NCBI GenBank assembly: GCA_036172245.1
Contig: JAYWIR010000033.1
Coordinates: 186,001-250,000, forward strand
Source: Raillietiella orientalis
Lineage: Eukaryota
DNA: 64,000 nucleotides
Direction: 5' to 3'
Part shown: positions 4,501 through 52,993 of the stretch, in pieces
Layout: every line of letters begins with the position of its first letter
Position numbering within the stretch: position 1 is the first letter of the stretch
Program-made: the position numbers and the translations under genes
The notes under the pieces: generated by a model
Databases searched by the model: none
What the model was told of the DNA's origin: nothing
What the model saw: the letters and a program-made list of their open reading frames with translations, nothing else

Positions 4501-5087
4501 CAGTTAACAGACGCTGCGACCCCGAGTACGCCTCATAATGGACTTCTGCGCTGGGGTGCGCTGCTCGATGTTCCCATTGAACATTTGAAGTGGCCCCCGG
4601 TGCTCATGAACACTTCCGCCCTCCTTTCAAAATGGCAGAAGTCAATTCTCCTGTTGCAGCTCTGGGACTTTCCTGCAACGCCCGCCGACACCACTGGACC
4701 TGGGGAGCGGTGTACCCTAATTGCGTCAGGTGTGGGGAACGGGAGTCCCTCCCCCACCTGCTAGTGGATTGTGTTGCCCTTCGGCCCCTTTGGTTTCGCT
4801 TTGCCGCGGCCATCGGTATCCCCTGCGGCAACCCCAGGAAGGCACTGAAAGCCCTCTTCGTTGCCGACGCCCTTCGGCTAGCGGCCTCGTTAGCAGCTTT
4901 GTGCTGCCTACGCGGGATCGTCACCGCTTGGAGCAAGGCTACGGGAGGACAACGCGACCAGGGTGCCATCCAGCCAGCCTCCCAGTTCCTGAGGAGGGCG
5001 TCCCGATGGCCCCACTTGGATCCAGGAATACAGAAGGAGCATGCCGGCATCCTGCAAAGGATGCAACGGCCCCACCAGCAACTGTGA
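1508..5087 (+). pseudogene. ORF2 APE endonuclease/reverse transcriptase, disrupted by stops and frameshifts
   Basis: WNMNG, LLQE, NVYAP, AGDFN, SDH; KAFD, RQGDSLSPLLF, YVDD; CVRCGERESLPHLLVDC. Confidence 0.95.
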
Positions 5088-5304
5088 TCCCTTCCCTTAC
5101 CCTCCCAACTTTTCTTTTCTTTTTTGTTTTGTTTTTTGTATTCCCCCCTTCCCCCTGCTGCTGTGGTGGACCGTACCGGTCTGCGAACCGGTGATTCGGC
5201 AGGCTCTGTGTTTCTTCGTGCGTGACTGGAGCAATGGTCCAGCCACCGCACGTTTTTGTAAAAGTTTATTTTCCAATAAACGCCCGGCGAAATCCGGGTG
5301 AAAA

Positions 5305-6556
5305 CCGAACGCCCTGTGGAAATCGACTGCGAGCGCTAGGGCCCCCTTCCCCGCCCGGGGGTCACTTCTCAGTCCGGCTGGCGGCCCCAATGTGGGGTTG
5401 CCGACTTTCCCTATCCCTTTCTTTTCTCTTCTCTGCAGGTGCACCCATGTGCTTGCGAAGAAGCGGTTGCCATCCATACTTCGCCCGGGAACAGCATAAG
5501 TCTGCTCCGGGCTAATTAGGGATTCTGCCACCTGCCCCAGACGCGAAGTCCATAGCCGTGCTATTAACTTGGCGTCCGAATTCACAATCGTGATCGGAGG
5601 CCAGTTCTTTAAATTCCTGACGTCTCCTTCTTTCGGAAGGAGCCTCACTCTGGCTGACCGAAACTAGGCGGGAACATCGCCTTCGCCTCGGATCAGCCTG
5701 ATCAACTTATGCAGCAGGGGTGCCAGCTCTTCCGCGAAGCTCTGAAAGAACTCTACGGGCAAGCCGTCTTCCCCTGGAGCCTTACGCCTCTTGAGTTTTT
5801 TGATACTGGCGAGAACTTCGCCGGTGGTAAAAGGCTTGTAGAGGCTTTCCATCTCCTCCTCCCCTATTGCCGGGGCGCCATCCGGAAGCAAGCGTCGAGA
5901 AACGTTCCGATCCGGGGGCTCCCTAACGTAAAGAGAGGAATAAAAACTTCGCACGAGATGCCGTACCGACGCCGGGAACGAACATTCCCTGCCCTGGGCG
6001 TGCAGCAAGCTGGCCGACCCGGATTGCCAGGCTTGGCGTTCGGCCCCGGCGCTGTACTCGCCCAGGCGACGAACATTAGGGGTTCTTTCGTACCTACGAG
6101 CCTGTAAATAGGCCCGATGGTTGCAAGGACCCTCGTTGAATCCGGAAGGCAGGCGGTCCAGGGGGAACTGCTCACAGAACTCGCGGACGGATTCTTTAAA
6201 AAGGTCCCAGTCCTGGAGATTCCGGAGCGTGACGCCTCTCAGGTATTCGCGAAGGTGTTTCTTCGCACCTGGGAGTCGCGTCCAGTCCTCCGGCAGACGC
6301 CAATCCTAGGATGGCGGTCCTTTGTCTCGAGGCAGCAACTCGAAAATTAACTGGGAATATCCCGACAACGTCGACGCAACCCTCCCCCGTTTGCCGACCC
6401 GTGAACACAGGTCAGCGTCGAGAAAGACGTGGTAGATGCTGCGGACCCTTCCCCTCTCACCCGCGAACAAGATGCGAGCACGCATGGCGGCGCACAACTC
6501 GTTCTTCGCGTTCTCTTGTGTTTCTGGCTCACCTGATAGCAGACGGAGATTGAAAT
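5305..6556 (-). mobile_element. Family T copy 1, downstream part of ORF2 (from APE GDFN to RT AF[D/G])
   Basis: FNLRLLSGEPE, KAPGEDGLP, PEQTYAVPGR, AVDFHRAF; continues exactly from 19876-22213. Confidence 0.9.
6533..6556 (-). repeat. Target-site duplication, downstream copy (partner 19876-19896)
   Basis: Minus strand ATTTCAATCTCCGTCTGCTATCAG versus ATTTCAATCTCCG---GCTATCAG. Confidence 0.85.
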
Positions 6557-9500
6557 TTATCACCCGGTCACGCCGGGGCGTTTATTAATAATAATAAACT
6601 GGTCAGGGACAATGTCCTCAACCAACAGGACGACAGAAAACATAGAAAAATTACCGGCACGCAGGCCTGGTAAACAAACCGCTCGCAGCGTGGGGGAATG
6701 AGGGGAAACAAACAAAAATCAAAAACTGGAGGGAAGGGAAAAGGGTTTTTGGTAAGGCTCCGTACTCACGGGGATTTAAACGATGAGCACCTCGAATGTC
6801 TTGGAGCCTATCGGGACGCGGGTGTAAAAAGAAAATACAAAATTAGTTTATGGAGGGTAGGGCAATGATCACCGGGTTGGCCGCTGATGAGGGTGTGTAA
6901 ACCGGCGGTGTATTGCGGCGAGATTCCTCTTTGTCTCCTCTGTCAAATGAGGCCATCTAGCGGATGCTCCCATGTAGAAGGATGCTTTGCTGATTACCTC
7001 TTGGTGCTGTCCGTTGATTACCAACGCCTGGCGTACGGAAACTATCGCGCGTATGCAACCGATGGTTGCAATCCTTGCGCTTAGTGACAGCCCGCTCGGC
7101 GTGAAGAATCGTCGCAGCAAGTCTCTTGCGGTGTCCACGGGATGCATTAGTGCTGTTGCCAGCCTACGCCACAGTCCTCGTAGGACACCGCAGTCCAGAA
7201 GTAGGTGCGGAATCGACTCCGTCGATCTGCACCGAACGCAGTTCGCAGACGCAAGTCCCCCGGAGTCACGATGCCAACGCACGTTGCACTGAAAACCCCA
7301 GTGAACGAAAAGCAGCACACTTGTTTCCAAGCAAGGAAAAGCAGCGAACTGTCCATACACTGTGAAGGGACTACAAGTTCTTCGGGGGTGACAGCAAGTT
7401 CTTCTGCCCACCGGAGGAGTCCCTTTGCAGTAACACGAGGAGTGGCAACGTCCGCCAACTCACTCGTCTTCCAGGCGCCAAGGATTTTGGTTTTTCCCGC
7501 TATCGTGCAGGAAACCTCCCACCTCGGCGGTTGGTAACTGTCGTTTCTTGCCCTGAGGGCAGACAGCGCTGCGGCAAGAGGCGTGGCAGCCAGGGTAGAA
7601 AACTTCACCTCGTCCTGCAGTACCTCTTTCAAGGATCGTGGAAAAAATTGACGCAGGGGGCGAAGATCTTCAGGGCGTATTCCTTGGAACGCCGCCCAGG
7701 ATTCAACAGACTCCTGCCGCCAAGCTTCAAAGTTCATTGGGAGGCAGGAGATCCACGAGTGAGCTTCCAGAAGTGCGGTCAACTGCCGCAATGGAAACCC
7801 GAAACCCCGCTTCCTGTATTGAGTGCCCGGCAAAAGCGAGAGAAATTCTCCGCTGCCGGCGCATCTCCGCAGGAGAATGCGGGCTGGCACACACAGGGGG
7901 GATGTCCATAGCTGGGCACACAGTGCCAGCAGTCGGAACTGCACCTGCAGTCCGATTCGCTCCATTGTCAAGATACCCAAACCAGCATCCCGACGCGGAG
8001 CTAACAAATCTTTAAGGCGGATCCTGGATCTCGCCGGACCCCAGAGAGCGTTCCTGAGCAGGCGTTTAGCCCGCTGTTTTGCCGCATAGGGGGGGTCCAA
8101 AACAAAAAACAGGGGACGGAGGAGGGGGGCCACAAAGGTGTTCCAAATAGTCGCCCGTTCCTGCAAGGTAAACTTGCCGTTAAAGAACGGGTTGATGGCC
8201 AACTCTGCTTTCTGAAGGCAGTCCGCCCACGCTTCGGCTGTGCCGAAAGCGTCCAACGGAACACCAAGTTACTTAAAGTACCCGCCCGTGGCGATCCCCA
8301 GGCGGATCCAGTCGGACTGCCCCTCCCACGACGTACCCACAGGAACGACCACGCTCTTCTCTATATTCACGTTCATGCCCGCTCCCCGACGAATCAGGTC
8401 GAAGAAATCCTCGACACTGGACGCCGGGGTGGACATGGGGGGCAGAAGAAGCAGGTCATCAGCGTAGGCGGCCACGGCAGGCGTTCCCGGGCAGGAGCTT
8501 GGCAAGTGAGACAGCGTCAGCCTGTATGCTCTTAGCACCAACTCAAAGAAGATGCTGAAGAGCAACGGGCTTAAGCTGTCGCCCTGTCGGATGCCCCTAC
8601 GAACGGGAATACCATACACGCGGCAGCCGCTGAAAGTCATGCAGGTTAGCGCGTGGCGCCAGCACGCGCGCAAATACAGCAGGAGTTGCGCCGGGAACCC
8701 AAGGCGTTCCATAAGCTCCAAAAGCAGCTTCTGGTTTACGCAGTCGAACGCCTTGTGGAGATCGACCGCGACCGCCAGGGCACCTGGCGTTCCCTCCTGC
8801 CGTCGGCGCCTGTTCTTCTTGCCTGCGGCAGTGACTTTCGCAGCAGCCTGGCTTTGCTGCGCCACAACTTCCTGCAGCTGCATCCATGTACGCGCGAAAA
8901 GGATGTTCGCCTCCATGGATCGTCCCGGAACCGCGTAGGTTTGTTCCGGGCTCACCACAGATTCCGCGATACTTCCTAGCCGCGGGACCCACAGCTTGGA
9001 AAACAACTTGACGTCCGAGTTCTCCAAGGTGATCGGACGCCAGTTGTTAAGTTGGCGCAAGTCTCCGCCCTTCGGCAGGAGACGCACCTTCGCTGAGCGG
9101 AAGGAATCCGGGACATTCCCGGATTCCCTCATCCCGGATTCACTCATCAGCGTCGCGAGTTTCAGCATCAAGGGAATGAGCTCCACTGCAAAGCACTGAT
9201 AAAACTCTGCAGGGGGCCCATCCTCGCCTGGCGCCTCTCGTCTCTTCAGCCCAGCGATTGCGGACGAAAATTCATCCACCGTGAAGGGCTCGTCGAGACG
9301 TTCGCCTTCCCTATTCGCCGACAACACGAGCATCCTGAGACAGAAGTATCTCAGAAAGAATATCCTCCGTCGGGGATTCCGCGTACAGCGAGGATAAGTA
9401 GGGTCTCACAATGCGGCGTACTTCGGCTGGGGCCGAACATTTCTGGCCCTTGTCGTGCAACAGCCATGCTGCTTGGACTGCCAGACCTGGCGCTCGGACC

Positions 9501-12410
9501 TCGCCTTGTACTCTGCGAGACGCCCGACATCTGCGCGTCTCGAAAACGTGCGGGCCTGCAGAAAGTCTCTACTGTTGGCCACGCCCTCTCCGAAACCGCG
9601 TGGAAGCCGGTGAAAGGGGAATTGGCAGCAGAACTCGCGGACAGATCTTTTGAGATCGTCCCAGTCCGCAAGTTCTTGAATGGGAAAGCCTCGGAGGTAT
9701 ATACGTAGATGCTTCGCAGCATCCGGTTGGCTAAGCCAATCCGCCTGCATCCTCCAGTTTTGGAACGGAGGCCCCTGCCTGGCGGAAGGATCTCAAACTC
9801 CAACCTGTGGTGGTCAGAAAGCCTAGTCAACAATCTTCCTCTCCAACCCACACGCGAATGCAGGTTTATATCGAGGAAAACGTGATCGAGCGATCTTTCC
9901 ATTCCAGGTTCGCTGACCATCAAGTTGGCGGCGTGCGCGGACGCGCACATCTCGATAAGCAGCGCGCGTTCCCTCGGGGGGCTCCAATCGTCGGAGAGCA
10001 GGCGGACGTTGAAGTCCCCAGCGACGAGGTGCGCCACTTGGAAACCGGAGTTGTTGAGCCAGTGGCTCTGCACCTCACCAAAGAAAGCTACTCTTTCTTC
10101 GAGGTAGCGAGAGCCACTCGGCGCGTAGACGTTCGTAACGACGAGATCGATGGACTCGGACCACTTGATGACAAGCTGGCCTATCCGTCCGTTGTCATCG
10201 AAACGAACACAACGCACCGCTTCCGCCATTTTTCCTCTTACGAGGAACGCGACGCCGCACGTGTGTGCGCCGCCGCACCGCCAATGTAGCGTTCCGCCTG
10301 CGCGCTCCTCGATTTCGGCTGCCTGCTCGTCGGAGATTACGTGAATCTCCTGCAGGAGCGCGAGGTCGAAGGGGCGCAGGGCGTTGGCTACCAATCGGCT
10401 CTTCTCGTCATTCTGTATTCCGTTCACGTTTCAACACGTTACGGACAGACGACAAGAAGACGCGATTCCCGCATTACTGCTGGGAAGGTGGCGGCTTTTT
10501 GCTCGCTTTATCCGGCGAGCAGACGGCGAGCAGCACGACTGGCTGGACCCCGTCGGGTTTCGTGGAGACTTCGCGTTGCTTCGTGGCGAGCGTTGCCTGG
10601 CTGCCTACTTTTGATCGGCGCGCACACGCTTTCGAGCGAGTTGTCCTCGTCTCGGTGATCGGAACGGCATCCATTTCGGAGTCCGACCGGCGCATGTTCG
10701 ATCGGGTTTCGGCCTTCCGCGAAGTAGTGACAGGTTCTGCTGGATTGACAGCTGTCCTGTTGTCATTTTCCGTCACAAGGGCATCGCTTTTGGTGACGGC
10801 TGCTTTCCCGGCGCGCGCGTTCTCAGCGTGCTCACGCGCAGTTGCACGAGGGACCTTTGCTGAAGTCTTCTTTACTTCATTACGGTTCCTCACTTCGCGT
10901 GGCGCCGTAAATGGAGATTCTGCTCCATTGCCATCTTTGAAGCCATCCGCGTCTTTGGACGGGAGCACTTTGGATGGCTTCGACACGCTCGTCATGGACG
11001 CTGCCTCCGGAAGGGCTTTCAATCCCTTCGTTGGCATGGCATCCGCGCCAGTCGAGAGCTTGCTCTCCGACTGCGACGGCGTGAGATTTTCCTCCGCTTT
11101 CGCAGTGTTCGATCGCGACGCGGATTTTTTTTTGCCGACTTTCGAAGTCGACACGACACAACCCTTCTTACCCGATTTGGGCTTATCAGACACTGCAGGA
11201 GGTGAAGGAATGGATCTGACGGTACTGGAAGTGTCCTTACCGCCGTTGTCCATTGACGTCCCCGCCGGCTGCTCGAACTCCGAAAGAGCCGGGCGTGCTT
11301 GGTTAGGACAGCTATTGCGCCTATGGGGACTTACCATTGCCCCGGATTCCCCGCACCCTTTCTTTTGCGGCTCCCCTGCCGCGAGAGGGGGCGCGCAGGG
11401 CTTCGCTTGCGAGGTTTCCTGCTGCTTTGGGGCGACATTCCGCCTCGCGTATTTCGGAATTTCTGCCGTGGGGTCTCCAGATTTTCCGCAGATTTTTTCT
11501 TTTTATCCGCGCTTTGTTTCTTAAGATGAAGCTCCGCGGCTGCCTTTTTTCGCAAAAGATCCGAGCATTTTTTCAATTGGTGCCCGGATAGTTTGCAATA
11601 ACGGCAATTTCCAGAGGAGCATTTATCCAAATAATGCCCCTTCTTCCCGCATTGCTCGCACGTTCTTACTTTGCCCACGAACCACAGGTGAACGACCGTG
11701 TCTTTCACCTGTAGTTTCGTGGGCAGCAGAAGGCGGTCCGGCATTGTAAGCCGGACTCCAGCGACTCCGCTATGTATGGACGGGAAGTCCTTGAGGTTGC
11801 TACGCATCCTCCACAGCGCATGGACCGTGGCGAATTTCGCGAACGCGTTCCGAATGTCAATATCGGAGATTTCCGACTCGATGTCGAAAATCTCCGCCAC
11901 AAATGAGTCGTCCATGGCGGCCGGGAAGACCTTCTGGCCACGGATCGACAACGGGGTGCGCAGCAAGCGTTGCACAAGTGCAGCGTCTTTGCAACGCACC
12001 TTCAAGTACCTCATGTCTTTTACGGGCATAATGGCGAGAAGGTCCTCCTCCCGCACGCCAACACGGGTCAGTTCATCGTTGAACTGATTCCCGTCGCGCG
12101 CAGAAAGAAAACCACTCACCTTATATCGGAGAGCAGGTCTATTGCCTTGGGCTACGTATGCCCGCAACTCCGACTCGTCGAGTGGTTTCCCTTTGACGGC
12201 TGCTGTGGCAGCAACGTCAGCAAAACTCCTCTCCATTGGCGACAAAGACGAAGTAAAGGCGGCCGTCGGTTCCGCGATTGCAGATCCGGATGCTGTTCCT
12301 CCAACTTCAGTAGCTTCAAGTTGGGTCGATAACGTCGTCAAAATGTACGACGCCAAGATCAAGCGGATGAAAGCACGGAGACAAGAGCGAAGAAAAACAC
12401 GTCCGCACTC
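6557..12410 (-). mobile_element. Family G copy A, full-length, frameshifted
   Basis: 5' GAGTGCGGACGTG at 12410; ORF1 about 12333-10474; ORF2 10474-6869 in fragments with YADD and CVRCRSTESIPHLLLDC; 3' hairpin 6557-6586. Confidence 0.95.
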
Positions 12411-12732
12411 GATTGAAATTTATCACCCGGTCACGCCGGGGCGTTTATTAATAATAATAAACTGGTCAGGGACAATGTCCCCAACCAAGAGAACGACAGA
12501 GAACATAGAAAAATTACCGGCACGCAGGCCAGGTAAACAAACCGCTCGCAGCGTAAGGGGAATGAGGGGAAACAAACAAAAATCAAAAACTGGAGGGAAG
12601 GGTAACGGGTTTTTGGTTAGGCTCCGTACTCACGGGGATTTATACGATGAGCACCTAAAATGTTCCGGAGCCTATGGGGACGCGGGTGTAAAAAGAAAAT
12701 ACAAATTTAGTTTATGGAGTGTAGGGCAATGA

Positions 12733-15700
12733 TCACCGGGTTGGCCGCTGATGAGGGTGTGTAAACCGGCGGTGTATTGCGGCGAGATTCCTCTTTGTCT
12801 CCTCTGTCAAATGAGGCCATCTAGCGGATGCTCCCATGTAGAAGGATGCTTTGCTGATTACCTCTTGGTGCTGTCCGTTGATTACCAACGCCTGGCGGAC
12901 GGAAACTATCGCGCGTATGCAACCGATGGTTGCAATCCTTGCGCTTAGTGAAAGCCAGCTCGGCGTGAAGAATCGTCGCAGCAAGTCTCTTGTGGTGTCC
13001 ACAAGATGCAATAGTGCTGTTACCAGCCTACGCCACAGTCCTTGTAGGACACCGCAGTCCAGAAGTAGGTGCGGAATCGACTCCGTCGATCCGCACCGAA
13101 CGCAGTTCGCAGACGCAAGTCCCCCGGAGTCACGATGACAACGCTCGTTGCACTGAAAACCCCAGTGAACGAAAAGCAGCACGGCTTGTTTCCAAGCAAG
13201 GGGGAGCAGCGAACTGTCCATACACTGTGGAGAGACTACAAGTTCTTCGGGGGTGACAGCAAGTTCTTCTGCCCACCGGAGGAGTCCCTTTGCAGTAACA
13301 CGAGGAGTGGCGGCGTCCGCCAACTCACTTGTCTTCCAGGTGCCAAGGAGTTTGGTTCTTCCCGCTATCGTGCAGGAAACCTCCCACCTCGCCGGTTGGT
13401 AACTGTCGTTTCTTGCCCTGAGGGCAGACAGCGCTGCGGCAAGGGGCGTGGCAGCCAGGATAGAAAACTTCACCTCGTCCTGCAGTACTTCTTCCAAGGA
13501 TCGTGGAAAAAATTGGCGCAGGGGGCGAAGATCTTCAGGGCGTATTCCTTGGAACGCCGCCCAGGATTCAACAGACTCCTGCCGCCAAGCTTCAAAGTTC
13601 ATTGGGCGGCAGGAGATCCAAGAGTGTGCTTCCAGAAGTGCGGTCAACTGCCGCAATGGAAACCCGAAACCCCGCTTCCTGTATTGAGGGCCCGGCAAAA
13701 GCGAGAGAAATCCTCCGCTGCCGGCGCATCTCCGCAGGAGAATGCGAGCTGGCACACACAGGGGGGATGTCCATAGCTGGGCACAAAGTGCCAGCAGTCG
13801 GAACTGCACCTGCAGTCCGATTCGCTCCATTGTCAGGATACCCAAACCAGCATCCCGACGCGGAGCTGACAAATCTTTAAGGCGGATCCTGGATCTCGCC
13901 GGACCCCAGAGAGCGTTCCTCAGCAGGCGCTTAGCCCGCTGTTTTGCCGCATAGGGGGGGTCCAAAACAAAAAACAGGGGACGGAGGAGGGGGGCCACAA
14001 AGGTGTTCCAAATAGTCGCCCGTTCCTGCAAGGTAAACTTGCCGTTAAAGAACGGGCTGATGGCCAACTCTGCTTTCTGAAGACAGTCCGCTCACGCTTC
14101 GGCTGCGCCGAAAGCGCCCAACGGAACGCCAAGGTACTTAAAGTACCCGCCCGTGGGGATCCCCAGGCGGATCCAGTCGGACTGCCCCTCCCACGACGTA
14201 CCCACAGGAACGACCACGCTCTTCTCTCTGTTCACGCTCACGCCCGCTCCCCGACGAATCAGGTCGAAGAAATCCTCGACACTAGACGCCGGGGTGGACA
14301 TAAGGAGCAGAAGAAGCAGGTCATCAGCGTAGGCGGCCACGGCAGGCGTTCCCGGGCAGGAGCTTGGCAAGTGAGACAGCATCAGCCTGTATGCTCTTAG
14401 CACCAACTCAAAGAAGATGCTGAAGAGCAACGGGCTTAAGCTGTCGCCCTGTCGCATGCCCCTACGAACGGAAATACCATACACGCGGCAGCCGCTAAAA
14501 GTGATGCAGGTTAGCGCGTGGCGCCAGCACGCGCGCAAATACAGCAGGAGTTGCGCCGGGAACCCAAGGCGTTCCATAAGCTCCAAAAGCAGCTTCTGGT
14601 TTACGCAGTCGAACGCCTTGTGGAGATCGACCGCGACCTCCAAGGCACCTGGCGTTCGCTCCTGCCGTCGGCGCCTGTTCTTTTTGCCTGCGGCAGTGAC
14701 TTTCGCAGCAGCCTGGCTTTGCTGCGCCACAACTTCCTGCAGCTGCATCCATGTACGCGCGAAAAGGATGTTCGCCTCCATGGATCGTCCCGGAACCGCG
14801 TAGGTTTGTTCCGGGCTCACCACAGATTCCGCGATTCTTCCTAGCCGCGCGACCCACAGCTTGGAAAACAACTTGACGTCCGAGTTCACCAAGGTGATCG
14901 GACACCAGTTGTTAAGTTGGCGCAAGTCTCCGCCTTTCGGCAGGAGAGGCACCTTCGCTGAGCGGAAGGAATCAGGGACATTCCCGGATTCACTCATCAG
15001 CGTCGCGAGTTTAAGCATCAAGGGAATGAGCTCCACTGCAAAGCACTGATAAAAGTCTGCAGGGAGCCCATCCTCGCCTGGCGCCTTTCGTCTCTTCAGC
15101 CCAGCAATGGCGGACGAAAATTCATCCGCCGTGAAGGGCTCGTCGAGACGTTCGCGTTCCTCCTCGCCGACAACACGAGCATCCTGAGACAGGAGTATCT
15201 CAGAAAGAATATCCTCCGTCGGGGATTCCTCGTAGAGCGAGGAGTAGTAGCGTCTCACAATGCGGCGTACTTCGGCTGGGGCCGAACATTCCTGGCCCTT
15301 GTCGTCCAACAGGCATGCTGCTCCGGTCTGCCAGACCTGGCGCTCGGCCCTCGCCTTGTACTCTGCGAGACGCCCGACATTTGCGCGTCTCGAAAACGTG
15401 CGGGCCTGCAGAAAGTCTCTACTGTTGGCCACGCCATCTCCGAAACCGCGTGGAAGCCGGTGAAAGGGGAATTGGCAACAGAACTCGCGGACAGATCTTT
15501 TGAGATCGTCCCAGTCCGCAAGTTCTTGAATGGCAAAGCCCCGGAGGTATCCACGTAGATGCTCCGCAGCCTCCGGTTGGCTAAGCCAATCCGCCTGCAT
15601 CCTCCAGCTTTGCAACGGAGGCCCCCTGCCTGGCGGAAGGATCTCAAACTCCAACCTGTGGTGGTCAGAAAGCTCAGTCAACAATCTTCCTCTCCTACCC

Positions 15701-16326
15701 ACACGCGAATGCAGGTTTTCATCGAGTAAAACGTGATCGAGCGATCTTTCCATTCCAGGTTCGCTGACCATCAAGTTGGCGGCGTGCACGGACCCGCACA
15801 TCTCGATGGGCAGCGCGCGCTCTCTCGGGCGGCTCCAATCGTCGGAGAGCAGGCGGACGTTGAAGTCCCCAGCGACGAGGTGCGCCACTTGGAAGCCGGA
15901 GTTGTCGAACCACTGGCTCTGCACCTCACCAAAGAAAGCTTCTGTTTCTTCGAGGTAGCGAGAGCCACTCGGCGCGTAGACGTTCGTAACGACGAGATCG
16001 ATGGACTCGGACCACTTGATGACAAGCTGGCCTATCCGTCCGTTGTCATCGAAACGAACACTACGCACCGCTTCCGCCATTTTTCCTCTTACGTGGAAGG
16101 CGACGCCGCACGTGTGTGCGCCGCCGCACCGCCAATGTAGCGTTCCGCCTGCGCGCTCCTCGATTACGGCTGCCTGCTCGTCGGAGATTACGTGAATCTC
16201 CTGCAGCAGCGCGAGGTCGAAGGGGCGCAGGGCGTTGGCTACTAATCGCCTCTTTTCGTCGTTCTGCAGTCCGTTCACGTTCCAACACGTTACGGACAGA
16301 CGACGAGAAGACGCGATTCCTTGCAT
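12733..16326 (-). pseudogene. ORF2p of copy B (APE, RT, CCHC; about 1197 aa) with one in-frame TGA at 14092-14094
   Basis: ORFs 14092-16326 and 12733-14067 share a frame; paralogues have TGG (AEAW) at the stop. Confidence 0.95.
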
Positions 16327-18248
16327 TACTGCTGGGAAGGTGGCAGCTTTTTGCTCGCTTTATCCGGCGAGCAGACGGCGAGCAGCACGACTGGCTGGAG
16401 GGGACGGTCGCCACCGTCCTCTGTCGTGCTGCATGCATGTAATGCCTCCACGCCAGGCGGAACCCCGTCGGGTTTCGTGGAGACTTCGCGTTGCTTCGTG
16501 GCGAGCGTTGCCTGGCTGCCTACTTTTGATCGGCGCGCACACGCTTTCGATCGAGTTGTCCTCGTCTCGGTGATCGGAACGGCATCCTTTTCGGAGTCCG
16601 ACCGGCGCATGTTCGATCGGGTTTCGGCAATCCGCGAAGCAGTGACAGGTTCTGCTGGATTGACAGCTGTCCTGTTTTCGTTTTCCGTCACCAGAGCATC
16701 GCTTTTGGTGACGGCTGCTTTCCCGGCGCGCGCGTTTTCAGCGTGCTCACGCGCAGTTGCACGAGGGACCTTTGCTGAAGTCTTCTTTACGTCATTACGG
16801 TTCCTCACTTCGCGTGGCGCCGTAAATGGAGATTGTGCTCCATGGCCATCTTTGAAGCCATCCGCGTCTTTGGACGGGAGCACTTTCGATGGCTCCGACA
16901 CGCTCGTCATGGACGCTGCTTTCGGAAGGGCTTTTAATCCCTTCGTTGGCATGTCATCCGCGCCAGTCGAGAGCTTGCTCTCCGACTGCGACGGCGTGAG
17001 ATTTTTCTCCGCTTTCGCGGTGTTGGATCGCGACGCGGATTTTTTTTTTCCGACTTTCGAAGTCGACACGGCACAACCCTTCTTACCCGATTTGGGCTTC
17101 TCAGCCAGTGCAGGAGGTGAAGGGATGGATCTGACGGTACTGGAAGTGTCCTTACCGCCGTTGTCCATTGGCGTCCCCGCCGGTTGCTCGAACTCCGAAA
17201 AAGCCGGGCGTGCTTGGGAAGGACAGCTATTGCGCCTAGGGGGACTTACCATTGCCCCGGATTCCCCGCACCGTTTCTTTTGCGGCTCCCCTGCCGCGAG
17301 AGGGGGTGCGCAGGGCTTCGCGTGCGAGGTTTCCTGCTGCTTTGGGGCGACATTCCGCCTCGCGTTTTTACCGAATTTCTGCCGTGGGTTCTCCAGGTTT
17401 TTCGCAGATTTTTTCTTTTTATCCGCGCTTTGTTTTTTAAAATGGAGCTCCGCGGCTGCCTTTTTTCGCAAAAGATCCGGGCAATTTTTTAATTGGTGCC
17501 CGGATAGTTTGCAATAACGGCATTTTCCAGAGGGGCATTTATCCAAACAATGCCCCTCCTTCCCGCATTGCTCGCACGTTTTTACTTTGCCCACCAACCA
17601 CAGGTGAACGACCGTGTCTTTCACCTGTAGTTTGGTGGGCAGCAGACGGCGGTCCGGCATTGTAAGCCGGACTCCAGCGACTCCGCTGTGTATGGACGGG
17701 AAGTCCTTGAGGTTGCTACTCACCCTCCACAGCGCATGGACCGTGGCGAATTTCGCCAACGCGTTCCGAATATCAGTATCGGAGATTTCCGACTCGATGT
17801 CGAAAATCTCCACCACAAATGAGTCGTCCATGGCGGCCGGGAAGACCTTCTGGCCACGGATCGACAACGGGGTGCGCAGCAAGCGTTGCACAAGTGCAGC
17901 GTCTTTGCAACGCACCTTCAAATAGCCCATGTCTTTTACGGGCATAATGGCGAGAAGGTCCTCCTCCCGCACGCCAACACGGGTCAGTTCATCGTTGAAC
18001 TGATTCCCGTCGCGCGCAGAAAGAAAGCCACTCACCTTATATCGGAGAGCAGGTCTATAGCCTTGGGCTACGTATGCCCGCAACTCCGACCCGTCGAGTG
18101 GTTTCCCTTTGACGGCTGCTGTGGCAGCAACGTCAGCAAAACTCCTCTCCATCGGCGAGAAAGACGAAGTGGAGGCGGCCGTCGGTTCCGCGATTGCAGA
18201 TCCGGATGCTGTTCCTTTAACTTCAGTAGCTTCAAGTTGGGTCGACAT
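16326..18248 (-). CDS. ORF1p of copy B (RRM-like domain, two CCHC knuckles, long basic low-complexity tail)
   Basis: Uninterrupted ORF from MSTQLEATEV; CEQCGKEGHCLDKC and CRYCKLSGHQLKNC. Confidence 0.9.
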   Translation of the reverse strand: MSTQLEATEVKGTASGSAIAEPTAASTSSFSPMERSFADVAATAAVKGKPLDGSELRAYVAQGYRPALRYKVSGFLSARDGNQFNDELTRVGVREEDLLAIMPVKDMGYLKVRCKDAALVQRLLRTPLSIRGQKVFPAAMDDSFVVEIFDIESEISDTDIRNALAKFATVHALWRVSSNLKDFPSIHSGVAGVRLTMPDRRLLPTKLQVKDTVVHLWLVGKVKTCEQCGKEGHCLDKCPSGKCRYCKLSGHQLKNCPDLLRKKAAAELHFKKQSADKKKKSAKNLENPRQKFGKNARRNVAPKQQETSHAKPCAPPLAAGEPQKKRCGESGAMVSPPRRNSCPSQARPAFSEFEQPAGTPMDNGGKDTSSTVRSIPSPPALAEKPKSGKKGCAVSTSKVGKKKSASRSNTAKAEKNLTPSQSESKLSTGADDMPTKGLKALPKAASMTSVSEPSKVLPSKDADGFKDGHGAQSPFTAPREVRNRNDVKKTSAKVPRATAREHAENARAGKAAVTKSDALVTENENRTAVNPAEPVTASRIAETRSNMRRSDSEKDAVPITETRTTRSKACARRSKVGSQATLATKQREVSTKPDGVPPGVEALHACSTTEDGGDRPLQPVVLLAVCSPDKASKKLPPSQQ

Positions 18249-18334
18249 CGTCGTCAAAATGTACGACGCCAAGATGAAGCGGATGAAAGCACGGAGACGA
18301 GAGCGAAGAAAACACGTCCGCACTCGATTGAAAT

Positions 18335-19875
18335 TTATCACCCGGTCACGCCGGGGCGTTTTTTAATAATAATAAACTGGTCAGGGACAATGTCCCCAAC
18401 CAACAGAACGACAGAGAACATAGAAAAATTACCGCCACGCAGGCCTGGTAAACAAACCGCTCGCAGCGTGGGGGGAATGAGGGGAAACAAACAAAAATCA
18501 AAAACTGGAGGGAAGGGAACAGGGTTTTTGGTTAGGCTCCGTACTCACGGGGATTTAAACGATGAGCACCTCAAATGTTCCGGAGCCTATGGGGACGCGG
18601 GTGTAAAAAGAAAATACAAATTTAGTTTATGGAGGGTAGGGCAATGATCACCGGGTTGGCCGCTGATGAGGGTGTGTAAACCGGCGGTGTATTGCGGCGA
18701 GATTCCTCTTTGTCTCCTCTGTCAATTGAGGCCATCTAGCGGATGCTCCCATGTAGAAGGATGCTTTGCTGATTACCTCTTCGTGCTGTCCGTTGAGTAC
18801 CAACGCCTGGCGGACGGAAACTATCGCGCGCATGCAACCGATGGTTGCAATCCTTGCGCTTAGTGAAAGCCCGCTCGGCGTGAAGAATCGTCGCAGCAAG
18901 TCTCTTGCGGTGTCCACGGGATGCAATAGTGCTGTTGCCAGCCTACGCCACAGTCCTTGTAGGACACCGCAGTCCAGAAGTAGGTGCGTAATCGACTCCG
19001 TCGATCCGCACCGAACGCAGTTCGCAGACGCAAGTCCCCCAGAGTCACGATGCCAACGCTCGTTGCACTGAAAACCCCAGTGAACGAAGAGCAGCACGGC
19101 TTGTTTCCAAGCAAGGGGGAGCAGCGCACTGTCAACACACTGTGGAGGGACTACAAGTTCTTCGGAGGTGACAGCAAATTCTTCTGCCCACCGGAGGACT
19201 CCCTTTGAAGTACAACGAGGATTTGCGGCGTCCGCCAAATCACTTGTCTTCCAGGCGCCAAGGAGTTTTGTTTTCCCCGCTATCGTGCAGGAAACCTCCC
19301 ACCTTGCCGGTTGGCAGCTGTCGTGTCTTGCCCTGAAAGCAGACAGCGCTGCGGCGAGAGGCGTGGCAGCCAGGGTAGAAAACTTCACCTCGTCCTGCAG
19401 TACTTCTTCCAAGGATCGTGGAAAAAATTGGCGCAGGGGGCGAAGATCTTCAGGACGTATTCCTTGCAACGCCGCCCAGGATTCAACAGACTCCTGCCGC
19501 CAAGCTTCAAAGTTCATTATGCGGCAGGAGATCCAAGAGTGTGCTTCCAGAAGTGCGGTCAACTGCCGTAATGGAAAACCGAAACCCCGCTTCCTATATT
19601 GAGTGCCCGGCAAAAGCGAGAGAAATCCTCCGCTGCCGGCGCATCTCCGCAGGAGAATGCGAGCTGGCACACACAGGGGGGATGTCCATAGCTGGGCACA
19701 CAGTGCCAGCAGTCGGACCTGCACCTGCAGTCCGATTCGCTCCATTGTCAGGATACCCAAACCAGCATCCCGACGCGGAGCTGACAAATCTTTAAGGCGG
19801 ATCCTGGATCTCGCCGGAATCGAGCAGAGAGCGTTTTTGAGCAGCGCCAGCCCGCTGTTTTGCCGCATAGGGGTT
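18335..19875 (-). mobile_element. Family G copy C, 5'-truncated
   Basis: ORF2 C-terminus 18648-19868 and 3' UTR near-identical to copies A and B. Confidence 0.95.
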
Positions 19876-22213
19876 CTGATAGCCGGAGATTGAAATCTCC
19901 CGCTATCAGGTGAGCCTTCCGCACGTTCGTGTCCGCCAGCCAGTCGCGCTTCAGGGATTCCAGCAGCCTGGTGCGGTCGCTGTATCCCTGTTTACCGCTG
20001 GGGGCGTACACATTCGTGACGATCAGTTCGATCGAGTCGGACCAGCTGAGAATCAGCTAACCGTCCCGACCGTCGTCAGCGAAGCGCACGCCCTTCACGG
20101 CCGCGTCGATGGCCGGCTTCACGAAGAACGCGACCCCGCAGGTGTTGCGGAGGCCGCACCGCCAATACAACCGACCCCTTGCGATCGTCTCGATTTCCTG
20201 GGCGTCTGTCGTGGTGATCACGTGGATCTCCTGCAGCAGGGCCAGGTCGAGCTCACGCAGGGTGTCGGCCGTATCTCGCCTGTTACCGTCGTCGCGCAGC
20301 TTGTTCACGTTCCAAGGGGCGGCGCGAATCCGACGGCGACTGGCGAGCCCAGGTGTCAGTCCTGGGAAAACGACGATGCGGCGTCCGCCACCTGCTGGGG
20401 CGGGACGCTAGGTGGAGGAGGAGGGTCAGGCGCTGCGTGCACCTGGTCCCCCTCCTCCATGGGTATCGGCGCGTCGAGCGGGTCACCCTAAGGTGGGGTC
20501 GCGCCTACCTGTTGGCCCTCCTCCATGGGGGCGGGCTGTTCAGGCTCGGCGACTGCAGGTAGCACTTCGCCCCCCTGCTCACCCTCCTTTATGGGGGTGG
20601 CCGGCTCGACGGCTTCCGAGCGTGGGAGTTCCCCCTCCGGGATTCCCACGCTACCGCTAACTTCCTGTTTCTCCTCCTCGCTGGTGGAGGGGAGGCGCCT
20701 CCTTGGTTTCTGGGACTTGCGTCCCGACTTCCTAGGGGGTGCCTCCGAGGAGGAAGATGCACTTCCGGCCCTTAAATCCGACTCACCTATGGGGGCCTTT
20801 TTCGCGGGAGCCGGCCTTCGCACGGCCTTGCGTGAGGGGTTCTCACGCTCCGCCAGCGTGGCCGCGAGCTCCTCCGCCGCCTTTGCGAACGCGGCGTCCT
20901 CGGTGTCGACCGGCGCGTCGCGCGGCTCACCCTCTGTTTGCACTGAGGGTTCGCCGTCGCGAACTTCGGGTGCGACGGAAACGGCGAGGGGAGGCTCGTC
21001 GCCCCGGGTGGCATCTTCCGGAACGCCGATACGTTCCAGTGCCCCCGTGCACTTGCGTACGGTTTTCGAACGCGGCCCGGGTTTTTTTGCCTTACCGGCC
21101 GGCTTCTCTTTCTTCTCCCTTAAAGGAGCTTTTCTCTCTTTTCTAGCTGCTACAAGTTGCCAGCCTTCTTCACCTTTCGCCTCTTGGCAAGGTTTATCCT
21201 CCGCTTGCTTTTGTTTGCAAGTCTTTTCTTTTGGAGGTTGAGGATCTGGCAGCTTCAGCCGGCCAGCGTCCGCCTTAGGTCTTGTGACCTTTAGTGCGCG
21301 TTTCCCCTGCGCCTTTTTCGCGGCAGGAGGAACCGGGGTGGGGCGTTTTGGGCACACACGTCGAACGTGGCTCTTCTCCCCGCACATGTGGTATTGGATG
21401 CTAGGATACCTCTTGGGATGGTGTCCTACGGTATCGCAGTAGCCGCAATCCCAGGGCTTTCCCACGTACCAGAGGTCCACGCTCTCTTGCGCAACCTCCA
21501 GCTTGTGAAGAAGCCCACAGTCCTTACTCACGGTTACCCGCGCTGCAGCCTGGCCTCCGAAATGGCTATTGAAGCCTTTAAAGATTGTTGGCTTAGGCCA
21601 CAGCGCGTGCACCTCACCGAGCTTCTGTAGTTCTTGTGCTACCGCAGAGCGTGTCATACGGCTCGTTATTCCAGTGAGATGGACCACCACGGAGCGGTGC
21701 ATCGTCACCGGCAAGATCTTGCGGCCGTCGACGTTCAGCGGGTTCGTGATCAGAGTTTGAGCCAAAGTGATCTCCTTGCACACCACCTCGACTCGCTGAC
21801 CTCCGCTGAGAACGGACAAACCGTCAAGATCTTGTTCTCTTACTCCAGCGTTTTGCAGCGCTTTCGGAAACGCGCGTGCCGTTTTTCCATCAAATAGGGG
21901 CCTACCTGTTACACCAAGCTGGGCTTGTACCCAGCTGCCCGGTAGGCCGCCATCTCGGCCACGGTTTCCGCGCTCGGCGCGGCCACCATTTCGCTCCAGC
22001 TCCTCGCCTTGGGCGGCGAGGGCGATTACGGGGCGGATGCCCCTGATTCTGTAGGCTGTGGGGGTGGGCAAGCCTTCCTCATACCTACCTCCATCGTGGT
22101 GTCCTCAGGCATTGCTGCCATCGGACACCAACGATGTTCCACACGAACACACAGAAAGAAAAAAACCGCTTCCTGTCGACTCACTCGGGAGCGAAGGAAA
22201 AATACGTCCACTC
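19876..22213 (-). mobile_element. Family T copy 1, upstream part (5' UTR, ORF1 22121-20356, APE N-terminus)
   Basis: 5' GAGTGGACGT at 22213; SEAPPRKSGRKSQK ORF1 signature; LLQEIHV, YAPSG, IAGDFNLR. Confidence 0.92.
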
Positions 22214-25141
22214 GCCAAGGGATTTGGAGACGGGTTACGTAACCAACGAGCCTATCTGCAGGCTCGCCGTTACGCCAGGACCCCCGACATCCGCAGGCTG
22301 CCGGAATACAAAGCAGGAGCTGAGAGGCAAGCCTGGCAGTCAGGATCGGCCAGCTTGCTGGACGATCAGGGCCAGGAGCATTCGGCACCCGCTCAGATCC
22401 GCGGTCTGCTGCGGCGTTTTTACTCCTCCCTGTACGCAAGAACGCCTTTCGAGCGGGATTTGCCACAAATCCAGCTTCCGGAAGGCGCTACTGCGATCAA
22501 GAAAGAGGAGAAAAAGTCCCTTGACGAGTCTTTTACGATGTGCAAGATCATCTCGGCCATCGGAAAGCTCAAGAAACAAAAGGTTCCAGGGGAGGACGGC
22601 CTGTCCGCGGAGTTCTATCAAACCTTCGCGGCTGAGCTAACCCCTCTGGTACATCAACTCACCTTGCTGATACGCAAGACCGGTGACGTTCCCGCCTTTT
22701 TTCGTTCGACAAAGGTGCAGCTTCTTTCTAAGGGAGGAGATCTGAGGAGCATAAACAACTGGCGTCCCATCACAAAAGTGAATGCGGACGCCAAGTTGGT
22801 GACTAAGGTTTGGGCAGAGCGTCTGGGACGGGTTGCAAACGCCTTCATCATCCGGAACAGACGTATGCTGTTCGGGGCGAAGCATGGAGGCGAACCTGTT
22901 CCACGCTTCCACCTGGCAAGAGCTCCAACACGAAAGGGGCTTGATGCGCACCGGGAATTCCGGTGAGTCCGTCAGTCATGCGACGGATGGTCGGATGGGG
23001 GAGGGAGCACTTGCGGTCGCTGTCGACTTGCGTAAAGCATTCGACAGCGTCGACGAGAATCTCCTGCTGAAGCTTTTGGAACGCTCGGGCATCCCGGCCT
23101 CATTATTGGCCTATCTGCGCTCTAGCTGGCGCGATTCGCAAATCAATGTAACTTTCAGCGGGCATACATTTCACGGCGTGCCGATGCGACGTGGGATCCT
23201 GCAAGGAGACAGCCTGAGACCCTTGCTCTTGAGTACCTACTTTGAGTTGGTACTGAGAGCGTACACGGAAACTCTGGCGCACTTGCCGCATGAATGCGCC
23301 GAAACGTTTGCGGTTTCATCATATGCGGACGACCTCCTGCTACTGCTCCCTATGTCCACCCCGCCTTCGGCGGTCGAGAAGTTCTTCGACCTGCTGAATC
23401 GAGGAACCGGGCTTACGGTGAACAGGGCGAAGTCGTCCGTGATGCCAGTTGGTGCGGCGCGGGCAATGCAGCAGGACTGGGTCCGTTTGGGGATCCCCAC
23501 GGTAAGGTACTTCAAGTTCCTTGGTGTGCCGTTGGGGGACTACTCCCCTGCGGAAGCGTGGTCCGGCTGCCTTCAAAAAGTAGAGACGGCTATCGGCCCG
23601 TTTGGAGGCGGCAGGTTTTTCCTTCCTGAACGGGCCGCGGTTTGGAACATGTTTGCGGCTTCTCTCCTCCGTTCCCCGCTTTTTGTTTGCCCCCCCACAG
23701 AAAGGATCAAAAAGCGGACGAAGGACCTTCTCCGTATCGCCCTTTAAGCCAACGGGAGGGCCCGAGTCCGCTTAAAGGACTTGTGCGTTCCTCGTTGGAA
23801 TGGTGGTCTGGGCCTCCTTACATTGGAGCGGCTGGAGCTGCAGCTCCAGTTCTGGATTTTGGCACTTGTGCCGGAGTTGTGGTGCACCTGTTGGTGCGTT
23901 TCTGCACGTCTCCTCCTTCAGCAAGCCACCGGCAAGACGGGACTTACGTCGTTTCTTGCGCTCCATCGAAACCGCATCAACCGATGTGAGCTTCAGCTAC
24001 GGAGGGTGGCTGCGCTGGCAAGGAAAAATCAAGGATGGATCACCTGTCTATCTGCGAACGGTAGTGCCTGGTTGCAGGAAACCGTTCGCACGTGGGGACA
24101 GTTCGGCATGCAAAGCTCATATCAGGAACGAAGCTTCCTGTTCGGGTGTTACAGAAGTTGCACGCTCCGTGAGATCCTGTAGGATCCTAAGAAGAGAGCG
24201 TGGTCAGGAAGAACCCCCCTCCGCTGCTGCGCTGGACTCCCTAGTAGAACATTGGGACAGCGATGTTGCGGCGAAGTGGGAGGTTAGGATAAAAATCTCC
24301 GGGAAGGAGAAGAAGCAGAGAGAGTGGAAGACGGGCCAGCTAACTGATGCTGCGTCCCCAAGTACGCCTCCTAATGGACTTGTGCGCTGGGGAGCGCTGC
24401 TGGATGTTTCCATTGAACATCTGAAGTGGCCTCCAAATCTTATCAACACTTCCATTATCCCTCTTAAATGGCAAGAGTCGGCATTCCTGTTGCAGCACTG
24501 AGGACTCCCCTGCAACGCACGTCGACACCACTGGACCTGGGGAGCGGTGGATCCCAATTGTGTGAGGTGCGGGGAACGGGAGTCCCTCCCCCACCTCCTA
24601 GTGGATTGTGTTGCCCTTCGGCCCCTTTGTTTCCGCTTTGCCGCGGCCATCGGTATCCCTTGCGGCAATCTCAGGGACGCACTAAAAGCCTTCTTTGTTG
24701 CCGACGCCCTGCGGCCAGCGTCCTCGATAGCAGCCTTGTGCTGCCTTCGTGGGATCGTCGCCGCCTGGTGCACGGCGACGGGAGGACCTAGCGATATGGA
24801 CGCCATCCAGTGCGCCTTCCAATTCCTGAGGAGGGCGTCGCGATGGCCCCACCTGGATGTTTATAACAAACAAGAGCTTGTCAGCATCCTGAGAAGGATG
24901 ATGCGGCCCCAGAAGCATCAGTGATCCCTTCCCGTTCCCTCCCACCCTTTGTTTTTTTTTGTTTAGTTTTTTTGTTTTTCCCCTTTCCCCTGCTGCCTTG
25001 GTGGACCGTACCGGTCTAGAAACCGGTGAATTAGCAGGCTCCGTGGTTCTTAGCTTCTGGCTGGAGCATTGCCACAGCCATTAATAATTACTTTATAAAG
25101 TTTATTTTTTAATAAAAGACCCGGAGAAATCCGGGTGAAAA
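22214..25141 (+). mobile_element. Family F copy b, 3' part (ORF2 from GFGDG to the end), pseudogenised
   Basis: Colinear with 2390-5304; YADD; zinc finger; ends AATAAA AGACCCGG AGAAAT CCGGGTG AAAA. Confidence 0.95.
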
Positions 25142-33173: not shown

Positions 33174-33250
33174 TTGCCATCCGGTCACGCCGGGTAGTTT
33201 ATTATAAATTCTCTACAATTCGTGGTACGAGGCCCCACTGCAACCAACTC
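33174..33250 (-). mobile_element. Family K 3'-terminal stub (about 75 bp)
   Basis: Matches 36120-36195. Confidence 0.8.
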
Positions 33251-35144
33251 GGACGTGAGTGCGAACCGGAAAAAGAGCGTGATTGTACCTGTAGGAGCGT
33301 CGTGGGAGGGTCATAAACACTGGATCCGCCTGGGGATCCCAACGGCGGCGTATTTCAAGTACCTTGGAGTTCCGCTGGGCAATCTCTGTTCTGTCGAGGC
33401 GTGGTCGGACTGCCATCAAGAGTTAGAGTTGGCAGCCAGCCCGTTCACTTACGTCAAGTTCACCTTACCGGAACAGGCAACAATTTGGAACACCTTTGTA
33501 GCACCTTCCTTCGACCCCTGTTTTTTGTCTCGGACCCCCCCTACGCGGCCAAAGAGCGGGCAAATCGCCTGCTAAGGAACCCACTCGGGGGTAATGCGCG
33601 ATTCAGGATCCGCCTAAAAAACTTCGCGGCTCCAGTCGGGATGCTGGTCTTGGCATCCTTAGAATGTAGAGAATCGGACTGCAAGTGCAGTTGAGGATGC
33701 TCGCACTTTGTGCCGAGCTATGGACTTTCCCCCTGTGTGCGCCTCCGCGCATCCTCCTAAGAAGGTGTGCAGGCAGTGAAGGACCTCTTTCCTTGGTGCC
33801 CGGCATGCGTCACAGGAAACAGGGATTTGGCTACCCTCTGAAGAAAATCGCCTCCCTATTGGAAGCCAATGCGTGGATTTCCTGCTGCTCGATGAACTAC
33901 AATGCTTGGCGGCAGGAAACCATTGATTCTTGGGCTGTATCCTTAGGTATGAGCCGTAAAGATCACCGCCCCCTGCGTCGATTCCAACCTTCGTCGCTCG
34001 AAGATGTCATGCGGGACGAGGTGAAGTTTTCCTCCCTGGCCGCCACGTCCCTTGCCGAAGCACTTTCTGCACTCGAGGATCGAGATGACAGTAGCCAGCC
34101 ATGGAAGTGGTAGTTCTTCCGCACCATTGCAGGAAGAACAAAGCCAGTTGGCGAATGGGCCACGAGCGAGTTCGCAGATGCCGCCAATCCTGGTGCAACA
34201 CCAAAAAGATTACTTCGGTGGGGAGAAGCACTAAGTGTTGCCCACAGGGAACTTACAATCCCTCCTTGGTGTTTGGACGGTTCGGTGATTTCCCTTGCAT
34301 GGAAGCAAGACGTCTTGCTCTTCTTACACTGCGGCTTGCGCTATTACGAGCGGCGACACCGAGTTTCCGGTGGGGTAGCTTCTCCCTACTGTGTTCGTTG
34401 CGGGGCGACGGAGTCGTTCCCGCACCTTGTTATGGGCTGCGGTGCCCTCCATGAACTCTGGAGGAGGCTAGCATCAGCTCTCCCGCTTCCAAGTGACACC
34501 GCTTGAGAAGTGCTGCGACGGTTCTTCCAGCCACAAGGACTTTCGATGGTTGCGACGATTTCCACTGTTGGGTGCATCCGCGGCATCGTCACGATCCGAG
34601 ACGTGATGGAGAACCCGGGACAGCAATGTTGTGCCACCAGGAAGGCAGCCTACTTCATCAGGTGGGCAGCTGGGTGGCGACACTTATGGGAAGACACAAC
34701 GGAGCAGCTAACCGGTATCCATCGCCGGATGAGAAACGGCTTAGAACGACGAACCCGGTGATCCGCCCTCATTTTATTTTTAATTGATTTTTTTGTTCTC
34801 GCATCCTTTTCCCTATACCGTCCGCAGTGGTTTTGTTGCTGAAACTTCCGAGTTTCCCGGTGACTGCGGAGCGTCCCTAAAGTTCCCTGCCCCACTACTA
34901 CAGTTTAGAATTTTCTTTTTTTTGCTTTTTTTTTGTTTGTTTTTTGTTTTGTGTTTTTGTTTTTTTTTGTTTTTTTTGGTTTTGTTTTTGTTTTCAGACT
35001 CCCCTCAGTCGTCCGTGTTCTTCCGTTTTCCTGGCCTGCGTGCCAGTGGTGAATCTCCGCTGCATGTCTTTATAGTCGTGGCCTGGAAATGACTGTTTCT
35101 AGCTCGTTTACATCAATAAACGTCCCTGCGTGACCGGGTGATAA
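33251..35144 (+). mobile_element. Family G-related element, 3' part
   Basis: YFKYLGVP, DEVKFSSLAAT, CVRCGATESFPHL; long T-rich 3' UTR; ends GCGTGACCGGGTGATAA like copies A-C. Confidence 0.9.
34915..34995 (+). repeat. T-rich (TTTTG)n-like low-complexity tract in a retrotransposon 3' UTR
   Basis: Seen directly; shorter equivalents follow each ORF2 stop. Confidence 0.8.
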
Positions 35145-44328: not shown

Positions 44329-44336
44329 ACGCATCA

Positions 44337-52975: not shown

Positions 52976-52993
52976 CTCCGAATCCCCGCTGTG

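Follow-up and report, generated by a model that had tools for sequence, protein, structure and literature searches.

We describe a 64,000-nt window of the Raillietiella orientalis genome (NCBI GenBank assembly GCA_036172245.1, contig JAYWIR010000033.1, positions 186,001 to 250,000 of the forward strand), in which one long interspersed nuclear element (LINE), here named T, is interrupted by several units of another, here named G. The interruption is a 13.3-kb block of G sequence that splits a single minus-strand T element at the codons for the GDFN motif of its endonuclease, and the array consists of one truncated and two full G copies, head to tail, at one site (Table 1). A preliminary description of this DNA had placed such a block at 6533-19896, at the GDFN site within a T element, and both the placement and the coordinates are borne out by our analysis. 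Its account of the block as a trimer stands as far as three head-to-tail units are concerned, though not as three whole units, as one of them (A) is 5'-truncated and only B and C are full length.

Table 1. Coordinates of the G array, its T host and the sites compared with it (positions in the window)
Feature	Position	Strand	Basis or remark
T copy 1, 3' part	5305..6532	-	Open reading frame (ORF) 2 residues ~165-583; tblastn 6557-5307
Downstream target copy ATTTCAATCTCCGTCTGCTATCAG, 24 nt	6533..6556	-	Runs on into rest of T
G unit C, full length, 5854 nt, termini as in B	6557..12410	-	95.5% to B; 63-nt deletion relative to B; several frame breaks
B/C spacer ATTTCAATC, 9 nt, target-derived	12411..12419	-	
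G unit B, full length, 5906 nt, starts GAGTGCGGACGT	12420..18325	-	Pfam, ORF map, fold
A/B spacer ATTTCAATC, 9 nt, target-derived	18326..18334	-	
G unit A, 5'-truncated, last ~1.54 kb of G (ORF2 end and 3' untranslated region, UTR)	18335..19875	-	95.3% to B positions 4369-5906
Upstream target copy ATTTCAATCTCCGGCTATCAG, 21 nt	19876..19896	-	3 nt fewer than downstream copy
T copy 1, 5' part	19897..22216	-	5' end near 22216; ORF1 ~21945-21349; ORF2 residues 3-170 at 20383-19880, ending ...IAGD; tblastn map and 5' end alignments
G-like element	33246..35144	+	72.7% nt identity to G over 1.28 kb; 3' end ...GTGATAA joined to U-family host U3 (35145-36115)
Empty target site in uninterrupted T paralog	55364..55387	+	Comparison

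Read on the minus strand, the left half of T ends ...CTGATAGCGGGAG followed by the upstream target copy (19896-19876). The preliminary description had put the flanking duplication at about 21-24 bp, and the two copies do measure 21 and 24 nt, agree at 21/21 common positions and differ by a single 3-nt indel. When the halves of T are compared with an uninterrupted paralog elsewhere in the window, 20928-19881 matches 54326-55379 at 85.2% and 6532-6214 matches 55388-55706 at 90.9%, and the paralog reads through the junction uninterrupted as ...GCGGGAG-ATTTCAATCTCCGCCTGCTAACAGGTGAGCC. As both halves align to neighbouring positions of this paralog, the 13.3 kb is an insertion inside one T element, which itself stops at 5305, where the 3' end (5304) of a plus-strand element, U1, truncates it. 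Unit A starts at about position 4369 of B with 0-2 extra nt at its 5' junction and is therefore a plain 5' truncation. The pieces that separate A from B and B from C are, as had been reported, exactly ATTTCAATC, the 9 nt with which the flanking duplication begins. The window contains six copies of this nonamer where 0.37 would be expected, and 0/100 shuffles reach six; four occurrences lie at G junctions, and the other two lie at the GDFN codons of intact T-type copies (44797 and 55364).

G is a retrotransposon without long terminal repeats (non-LTR), a LINE, with an endonuclease of the apurinic/apyrimidinic (APE) type, and belongs to the L1 group. Its ORF2 matches the Pfam families Exo_endo_phos (5e-11, residues 26-233) and RVT_1 (2.6e-18, residues 474-745), both of which exceed the Pfam cut-offs, and among solved structures it matches human LINE-1 ORF2p best (2.2e-42) and then R2 proteins (6e-15). 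At the ORF2 C-terminus a zf-RVT match scores 18.7 bits against a cut-off of 27.5, and the translation shows a CxxC...H....C pattern; ORF1 carries two CCHC knuckles. The element lies in sense orientation within T, with a 5' UTR of only ~95 nt ahead of the ORF1 ATG, and finishes with AATAAA, a small CCCGG...CCGGG hairpin and then ...GTGATAA without poly(A), the terminal sequence being ...CCGGGTGATAA. The ORF2 of unit B contains one in-frame stop (14092-14094), which together with the several frame breaks of C indicates that these G copies are dead. A search with the G protein gave 9 matches at E <=1e-3 among 8000 scored candidates, the best being 24% identical and the matches at most 26% identical and without clade names, and an Atlas search returned generic clusters of APE and reverse transcriptase (RT) proteins only. 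The exact 20-nt junction pattern had no match in metagenome_contigs or genome_contigs, and a protein-guided locus search of metagenome_contigs, in which 38 pattern stretches were matched, recovered 0 relatives. An Rfam scan of 6000-20500 found no ribozyme and gave four weak matches, all far under their gathering scores.

The GDFN site in other hosts and the relations among the units

The same junction is seen outside the array. A G-like element on the plus strand, 90.9% identical to G over the last 33 nt, ends ...GTGATAA at 35144, immediately before ATTTCAACGTTCG, in a U-family host (U3) that is 83% like U1 from U1 coordinate 1974 onward. Uninterrupted U1 reads GGCG-ATTTCAACGTTCG at 1970-1986, which places the empty site at 1974. 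The U-family host is only ~68% like T, and the G-like element is joined to it at the same base of the same GDFN codons; to judge from this comparison, the insertion in U3 is evidently an independent second case of GDFN-site targeting. Further junctions come from X1, a public sequencing run that may be the window's own source sample and is hence not fully independent, and of which 8 of 107 pieces are listed; two other runs, X2 and X3, yielded no pieces. One X1 contig (3755 nt, 61 differences from B) contains a full-length G 5' end preceded by ATTTCAATC and by 21 nt identical to the left flank of T copy 1, and a second (1040 nt, 14 differences) runs from a G 3' end into ATTTCAATC and then TCCGCCTGCT, the right flank of T. 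The junction ...GTGATAA/ATTTCAA is thereby found at T copy 1, at 35144/35145 in the U-family host and in X1 contigs with T flanks. Empty sites for an insertion of this type are present in the window at 55364 and 44797 in T-type copies and at 1974 in U1, and one X1 joint skips all 13,340 nt, which amounts to an empty T site.

These comparisons also bear on whether the nonamer belongs to G or to its target. The preliminary description had left open that it might be part of every G 5' end, and our evidence speaks against this: at the empty sites 55364 and 44797 T itself carries ATTTCAATC, and the G 5' end in X1 is preceded by it together with the T flank, its role as a target duplication being judged from G copies within T targets. 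In each full-length 5' end (3/3, from B, C and the X1 contig), GAGTGCGG follows ATTTCAATC without a gap, so that full-length copies regularly come with a 9-bp duplication. Furthermore, the GDFN codons of G itself read GGGGACTTCAACGTCCG, unlike the target, and G is therefore without an insertion site of its own. On the strength of these junctions, we regard G as a target-specific element for the GDFN codons of T.

Two further features of the G junctions can be recorded here. One X1 contig consists of the T right flank, ATTTCAATC, only the last ~30 nt of G (window 6557-6586) and then 255 nt of unrelated, partly A-rich sequence; it may represent a non-autonomous or different element that borrows the G tail at the same T site. 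A reading frame that fuses T ORF2 to G ORF1 is open in B, but C and the X1 contig have one extra T in the 5' UTR and the frame is not conserved.

In a three-way alignment, A and B differ at 71 of 1538 positions, A and C at 84 of 1536, and B and C at 238 of 5837, so that the units are ~95% alike, and they differ by private indels as well. Over the common 1.5 kb, 48 variable sites set B and C against A, 36 set A and B against C, and 22 set A and C against B. With the G-like element as outgroup, the derived states common to pairs number 4 for BC, 6 for AC and 6 for AB, and the private derived states 24 for A, 9 for B and 20 for C, counts that come from 107 variable sites of which 38 were not polarisable and that include, for A, 10 sites in the poorly aligned first 70 columns. 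The differences between B and C are evenly spread, at 7-20 per 300 columns, with no mosaic pattern. A later tandem duplication of A and B, which the preliminary description had entertained, finds no backing in these counts, as A and B are not closest relatives with private defects in common. The units appear star-like, and we see no sign in the alignments of any two being local duplicates. The X1 copy is closer to B (~98.4%) than A or C are (~95%). That B has the fewest private changes and is closer to the X1 copy than to its own neighbours hints, on few sites, that B was inserted last, between A and C.

The differences among the G units (6557-19875) are unusually rich in transversions, with 133 transitions and 105 transversions between B and C, and CpG-to-TpG changes are few, at 9 of the 107 variable sites in the part common to A, B and C.

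Proposed order and mechanism of insertion

We propose a model for the origin of the array in which A inserted first with a 24-bp duplication and B and C re-inserted at the regenerated site with a 9-bp duplication each, a course of events that we hold to be moderately probable. The APE-type endonuclease of G would nick the bottom strand of T between GGGAG and ATTTCAATC, inside the GDFN codons of the T endonuclease, and this nick would prime reverse transcription of a G RNA ending ...GTGATAA, without poly(A). For full-length copies the top strand would then be cut 9 bp downstream, resulting in the 9-bp duplication. Because nothing on the right-hand side of the nick is lost from the downstream duplicate, the site would survive each insertion and be open to a further one. 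The truncated unit A is proposed to have entered first, with an aberrant 24-bp duplication, because its upstream flank has the full 21-nt T sequence (the 24 nt being still contiguous at entry) and because A is leftmost; B and C would then have gone into regenerated sites on the right-hand side of A, leaving A-9nt-B-9nt-C within a 24-bp repeat, exactly the order observed. Repeated insertion into a target regenerated by its own duplication was the proposal of the preliminary description, and it is what we too infer, with the refinement that 24 bp would belong to the first, truncated insertion and 9 bp to each full-length one. The anatomy of the array, the return of its junction in independent hosts and the star-like relation of its units are observed directly, and from them we infer the nick positions and the order of events, as well as the view that specificity would reside in the endonuclease rather than in pairing between RNA and target.

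Several observations weigh against this model. The duplications within one array are 24 and 9 bp, so that the model has to assume in addition that joining is irregular in truncated copies. Re-insertion needs an endonuclease that accepts the G tail (...GTGATAA) in place of the left flank of T (...GCGGGAG), and if B is youngest the enzyme must also accept a mere 9 nt of T on the right. In one X1 contig, antisense U sequence (window 1669-1648, minus strand) adjoins a G-type tail (...GTGATAA plus AT), so that some element with such a tail inserts away from the GDFN site, and either the specificity is not absolute or the tail is common to another family. The census of G copies covers one window and short contigs of one run, and the pair of X1 contigs that carry T flanks may stem from different G copies. 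The unequal private counts rest on the 107 variable sites. Finally, no G-G junction is bridged among the 8 listed pieces of the 107 from X1, which leaves the array without independent confirmation.

The lone long duplication and the truncation of A could also have arisen in a single insertion event, in which RT jumped across successive G RNAs that retained 9 target nt, copying C, then B, then a truncated A, within one 24-bp duplication. End-to-end template jumping is known for the R2 reverse transcriptase. Under such a scheme the G RNAs would be co-transcribed with their T host, and the sense orientation of G, its short 5' UTR and its missing poly(A) are as expected of a co-transcribed element; one event would moreover explain both the single long duplication and why the leftmost, last-copied unit is the truncated one. 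Yet the RNA ends would have to be trimmed to exactly 9 nt, and the Rfam scan gave no ribozyme or processing RNA at the G ends. Three distinct source RNAs would be required, given units ~5% apart with mostly private changes, and the X1 contigs with T flanks on either side show ordinary single insertions with the 9-nt duplicate. We therefore consider this explanation unlikely.

The two internal junctions of the array are identical, as they would be if a double insertion had made a dimer and an unequal sister-chromatid or homologous exchange had then added the third unit, a route proposed for the expansion of R1 arrays in Drosophila (PMC5932611). Exchange of this kind predicts a closest pair or a hybrid unit, and the derived states shared by pairs support neither: no pair stands out, the divergence of B from C is as high as that of A from B or from C, and B against C is without a mosaic. 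This makes such an exchange distinctly improbable in our estimation.

A third alternative, which we rate as very improbable, is that a G array at some other place was transcribed by read-through and its transcript inserted in T copy 1 as one 13.3-kb unit. It would account for the lone 24-bp duplication around the block and for a 5' truncation like that of one long cDNA, but a 13-kb read-through would have to cross two AATAAA and terminal hairpin ends, and the explanation only defers the question, as the array would still have had to arise somewhere else. That the array is an assembly artefact, a single G insertion expanded by mis-assembled repeat reads, is scarcely credible: the listed X1 contigs cover B at a depth of ~15 and C and A in patches, with no listed piece across a G-G junction, but differences of ~5% together with private indels are not producible by collapsed or duplicated reads, one X1 contig of 217 nt with 2 differences fits C specifically, and the gaps in the cover of C and A are no evidence either way.

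The surrounding nest of LINEs

The window has a GC content of 55-62% in 2-kb bins and is occupied almost wholly by related LINEs nested on both strands, and other pairs of families within it meet at recurrent positions. U1 (1-5304, plus strand) and U2 (22231-25141, plus strand) are 84.7% alike, both end ...CCGGGTGAAAA (5296-5310 and 25133-25150), and both end at ORF2 residue 583/584, antisense, of T-type hosts (6557-5307 and 25695-25141, minus strand) that are 64.5% alike. We considered the U1/T1 and U2/T junctions, which are spaced by 19.83 kb, as products of a segmental duplication and rejected this, as the T parts are only 64.5% alike and the U parts 84.7%; the two junctions are instead a second case of same-site LINE-in-LINE insertion. 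In the opposite direction, T copy 1 (22216-22231, minus strand, in U2) and a T-like copy (39010-39030, plus strand, in a U-like element) start within ~22 nt of one antisense-U position, which is intact in U1 (2384-2397) and U4 (58616-58630). At 52967-53005 (plus strand) a 3' end ...GTGATAA / ...GGGTGATAA at 52975 is followed by an 18-nt spacer (52976-52993) and then by GAGAGCGGACGT, the 5' end of the uninterrupted T copy. The first 11 nt of this spacer resemble the antisense-U site of the T 5' ends, and the 52975/52976 junction, with an architecture like that of the G-G junctions, looks like a mixed-family version of them. The 11-nt motif itself, CTCCRAATCCC, was rejected as significant, being as frequent as expected by chance (3 matches against 2.99 expected), and only the positions of its matches are suggestive.

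The LINE families of the window have a terminal module in common, namely AATAAA in a small A/U hairpin, a CCCGG...CCGGG hairpin and TGA(A/T)AA, with no poly(A). It forms the 3' ends at 5304, 25141, 35144, 52975 and 48150 on the plus strand and at 36120, 12420, 6557 and 55712 on the minus strand. Folding z-scores of the module are weak except for that of G (-2.5), and the presence of one module in several families suggests that RT may recognise the 3' stem-loop of these LINEs. A full-length element at 42573-48150 (plus strand) is nested in the ORF1 region of a plus-strand element at ~41345-52975, with a ~13-nt duplication, (A/T)CAACCCGCCGCC; this nesting explains the 4312-nt spacing of 44321 and 48633, which had been taken up as a candidate tandem and was set aside.

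Two observations concern the remainder of the nest. A minus-strand U-like 3' end, ...GCGTGAAAA (36120-36128), adjoins U3 (36097-36118, plus strand) at about ORF2 residue 498, antisense, within a conserved NWRPI-type RT motif. At the edge of the nest, 61184-63943 (minus strand) contains a further LINE ORF2, only 26% identical to that of G, from a more distant family.

Taken together, these junctions allow us to put forward, as a tentative proposal that we would not call probable, a guild of L1-group LINEs in which each is sequence-specific for a coding site of another: G for T and the G-like element for U at the GDFN codons (sense), U for T-type hosts at residue 583/584 (antisense, twice), and T for U near U1 2384-2397 (antisense, two to three times).

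Known systems and significance

Tx1L inserts in Tx1D. Target-specific APE-type LINEs are known in the Tx1 and R1 clades, with transposons among the sequences that they enter (Kojima & Jurka 2015, PMC4640811). G resembles the Tx1-clade LINEs as an L1-group element with an APE endonuclease, an ORF1 (with CCHC knuckles in G) and one exact site in a multicopy mobile element. It differs in entering, in sense, a conserved motif within the protein-coding sequence of a related LINE, and the likeness is one of description.

The closest parallel to the array itself is found in the R1 tandem arrays of Drosophila, whose units are separated by 33 nt of 28S ribosomal DNA (rDNA) (McGurk & Barbash 2018, PMC5932611). 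According to that paper, tandem transposable elements, R1 among them, can arise by a double insertion that leaves the target duplication in the junction. R1 arrays and the G array are both made of head-to-tail units of a non-LTR element that is target-specific and of the APE type, and each junction holds an identical short stretch of the target; both mix 5'-truncated with full units, and both are proposed to have arisen by repeated insertion at one site. In contrast to R1, the target of G is the coding sequence of another LINE, not rDNA, and the junction piece is 9 nt; the array has only three units, which are ~5% diverged and give no sign of expansion by unequal exchange, and the RT is of the L1 group.

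For the window as a whole, the nearest likeness is to the Zepp and Zepp-like clusters of green algae, in which insertion 'targets existing copies' (Blanc 2012, PMC3446292; Craig 2021, PMC8226300, both as excerpted). Those clusters, in the excerpted accounts, and the window are both GC-rich and consist almost wholly of nested L1-type LINEs in tandem arrays with many 5'-truncated units. The window is distinguished by several distinct families that target each other at fixed nucleotides, whereas the excerpted Zepp accounts are without a nucleotide-level site; here too the likeness, that of a GC-rich nest of L1-type LINEs, is one of description. Our literature search found no description of a LINE with a fixed target in the endonuclease-coding motif of another LINE, though one may exist all the same. 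We therefore see the G array as a clear example of a known process, in which the re-insertion of a target-specific LINE yields a tandem array, at an unusual target.

The value of the locus lies in the fact that a truncated first insertion, the regenerated 9-nt junction sites and an empty paralogous site can all be read within one window. As the target is the DNA for the catalytic GDFN motif of another LINE's endonuclease, insertion disables a competitor and at the same time lands in a harmless, multicopy 'safe harbour'. If the repeated nesting of other families at fixed sites, as found in this window, were true genome-wide, it would provide a sequence-level explanation of self-growing LINE clusters of the Zepp type, and mutual targeting combined with re-insertion would be a nucleotide-level mechanism for the seeding and growth of such clusters, which are possibly centromeric. 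Under such mutual targeting, G lineages would follow those of their hosts, as hyperparasites that inactivate the host's endonuclease. Nesting of this kind, if general, would also enlarge the short list of natural site-specific enzymes from retrotransposons by endonucleases with new, long recognition sites.

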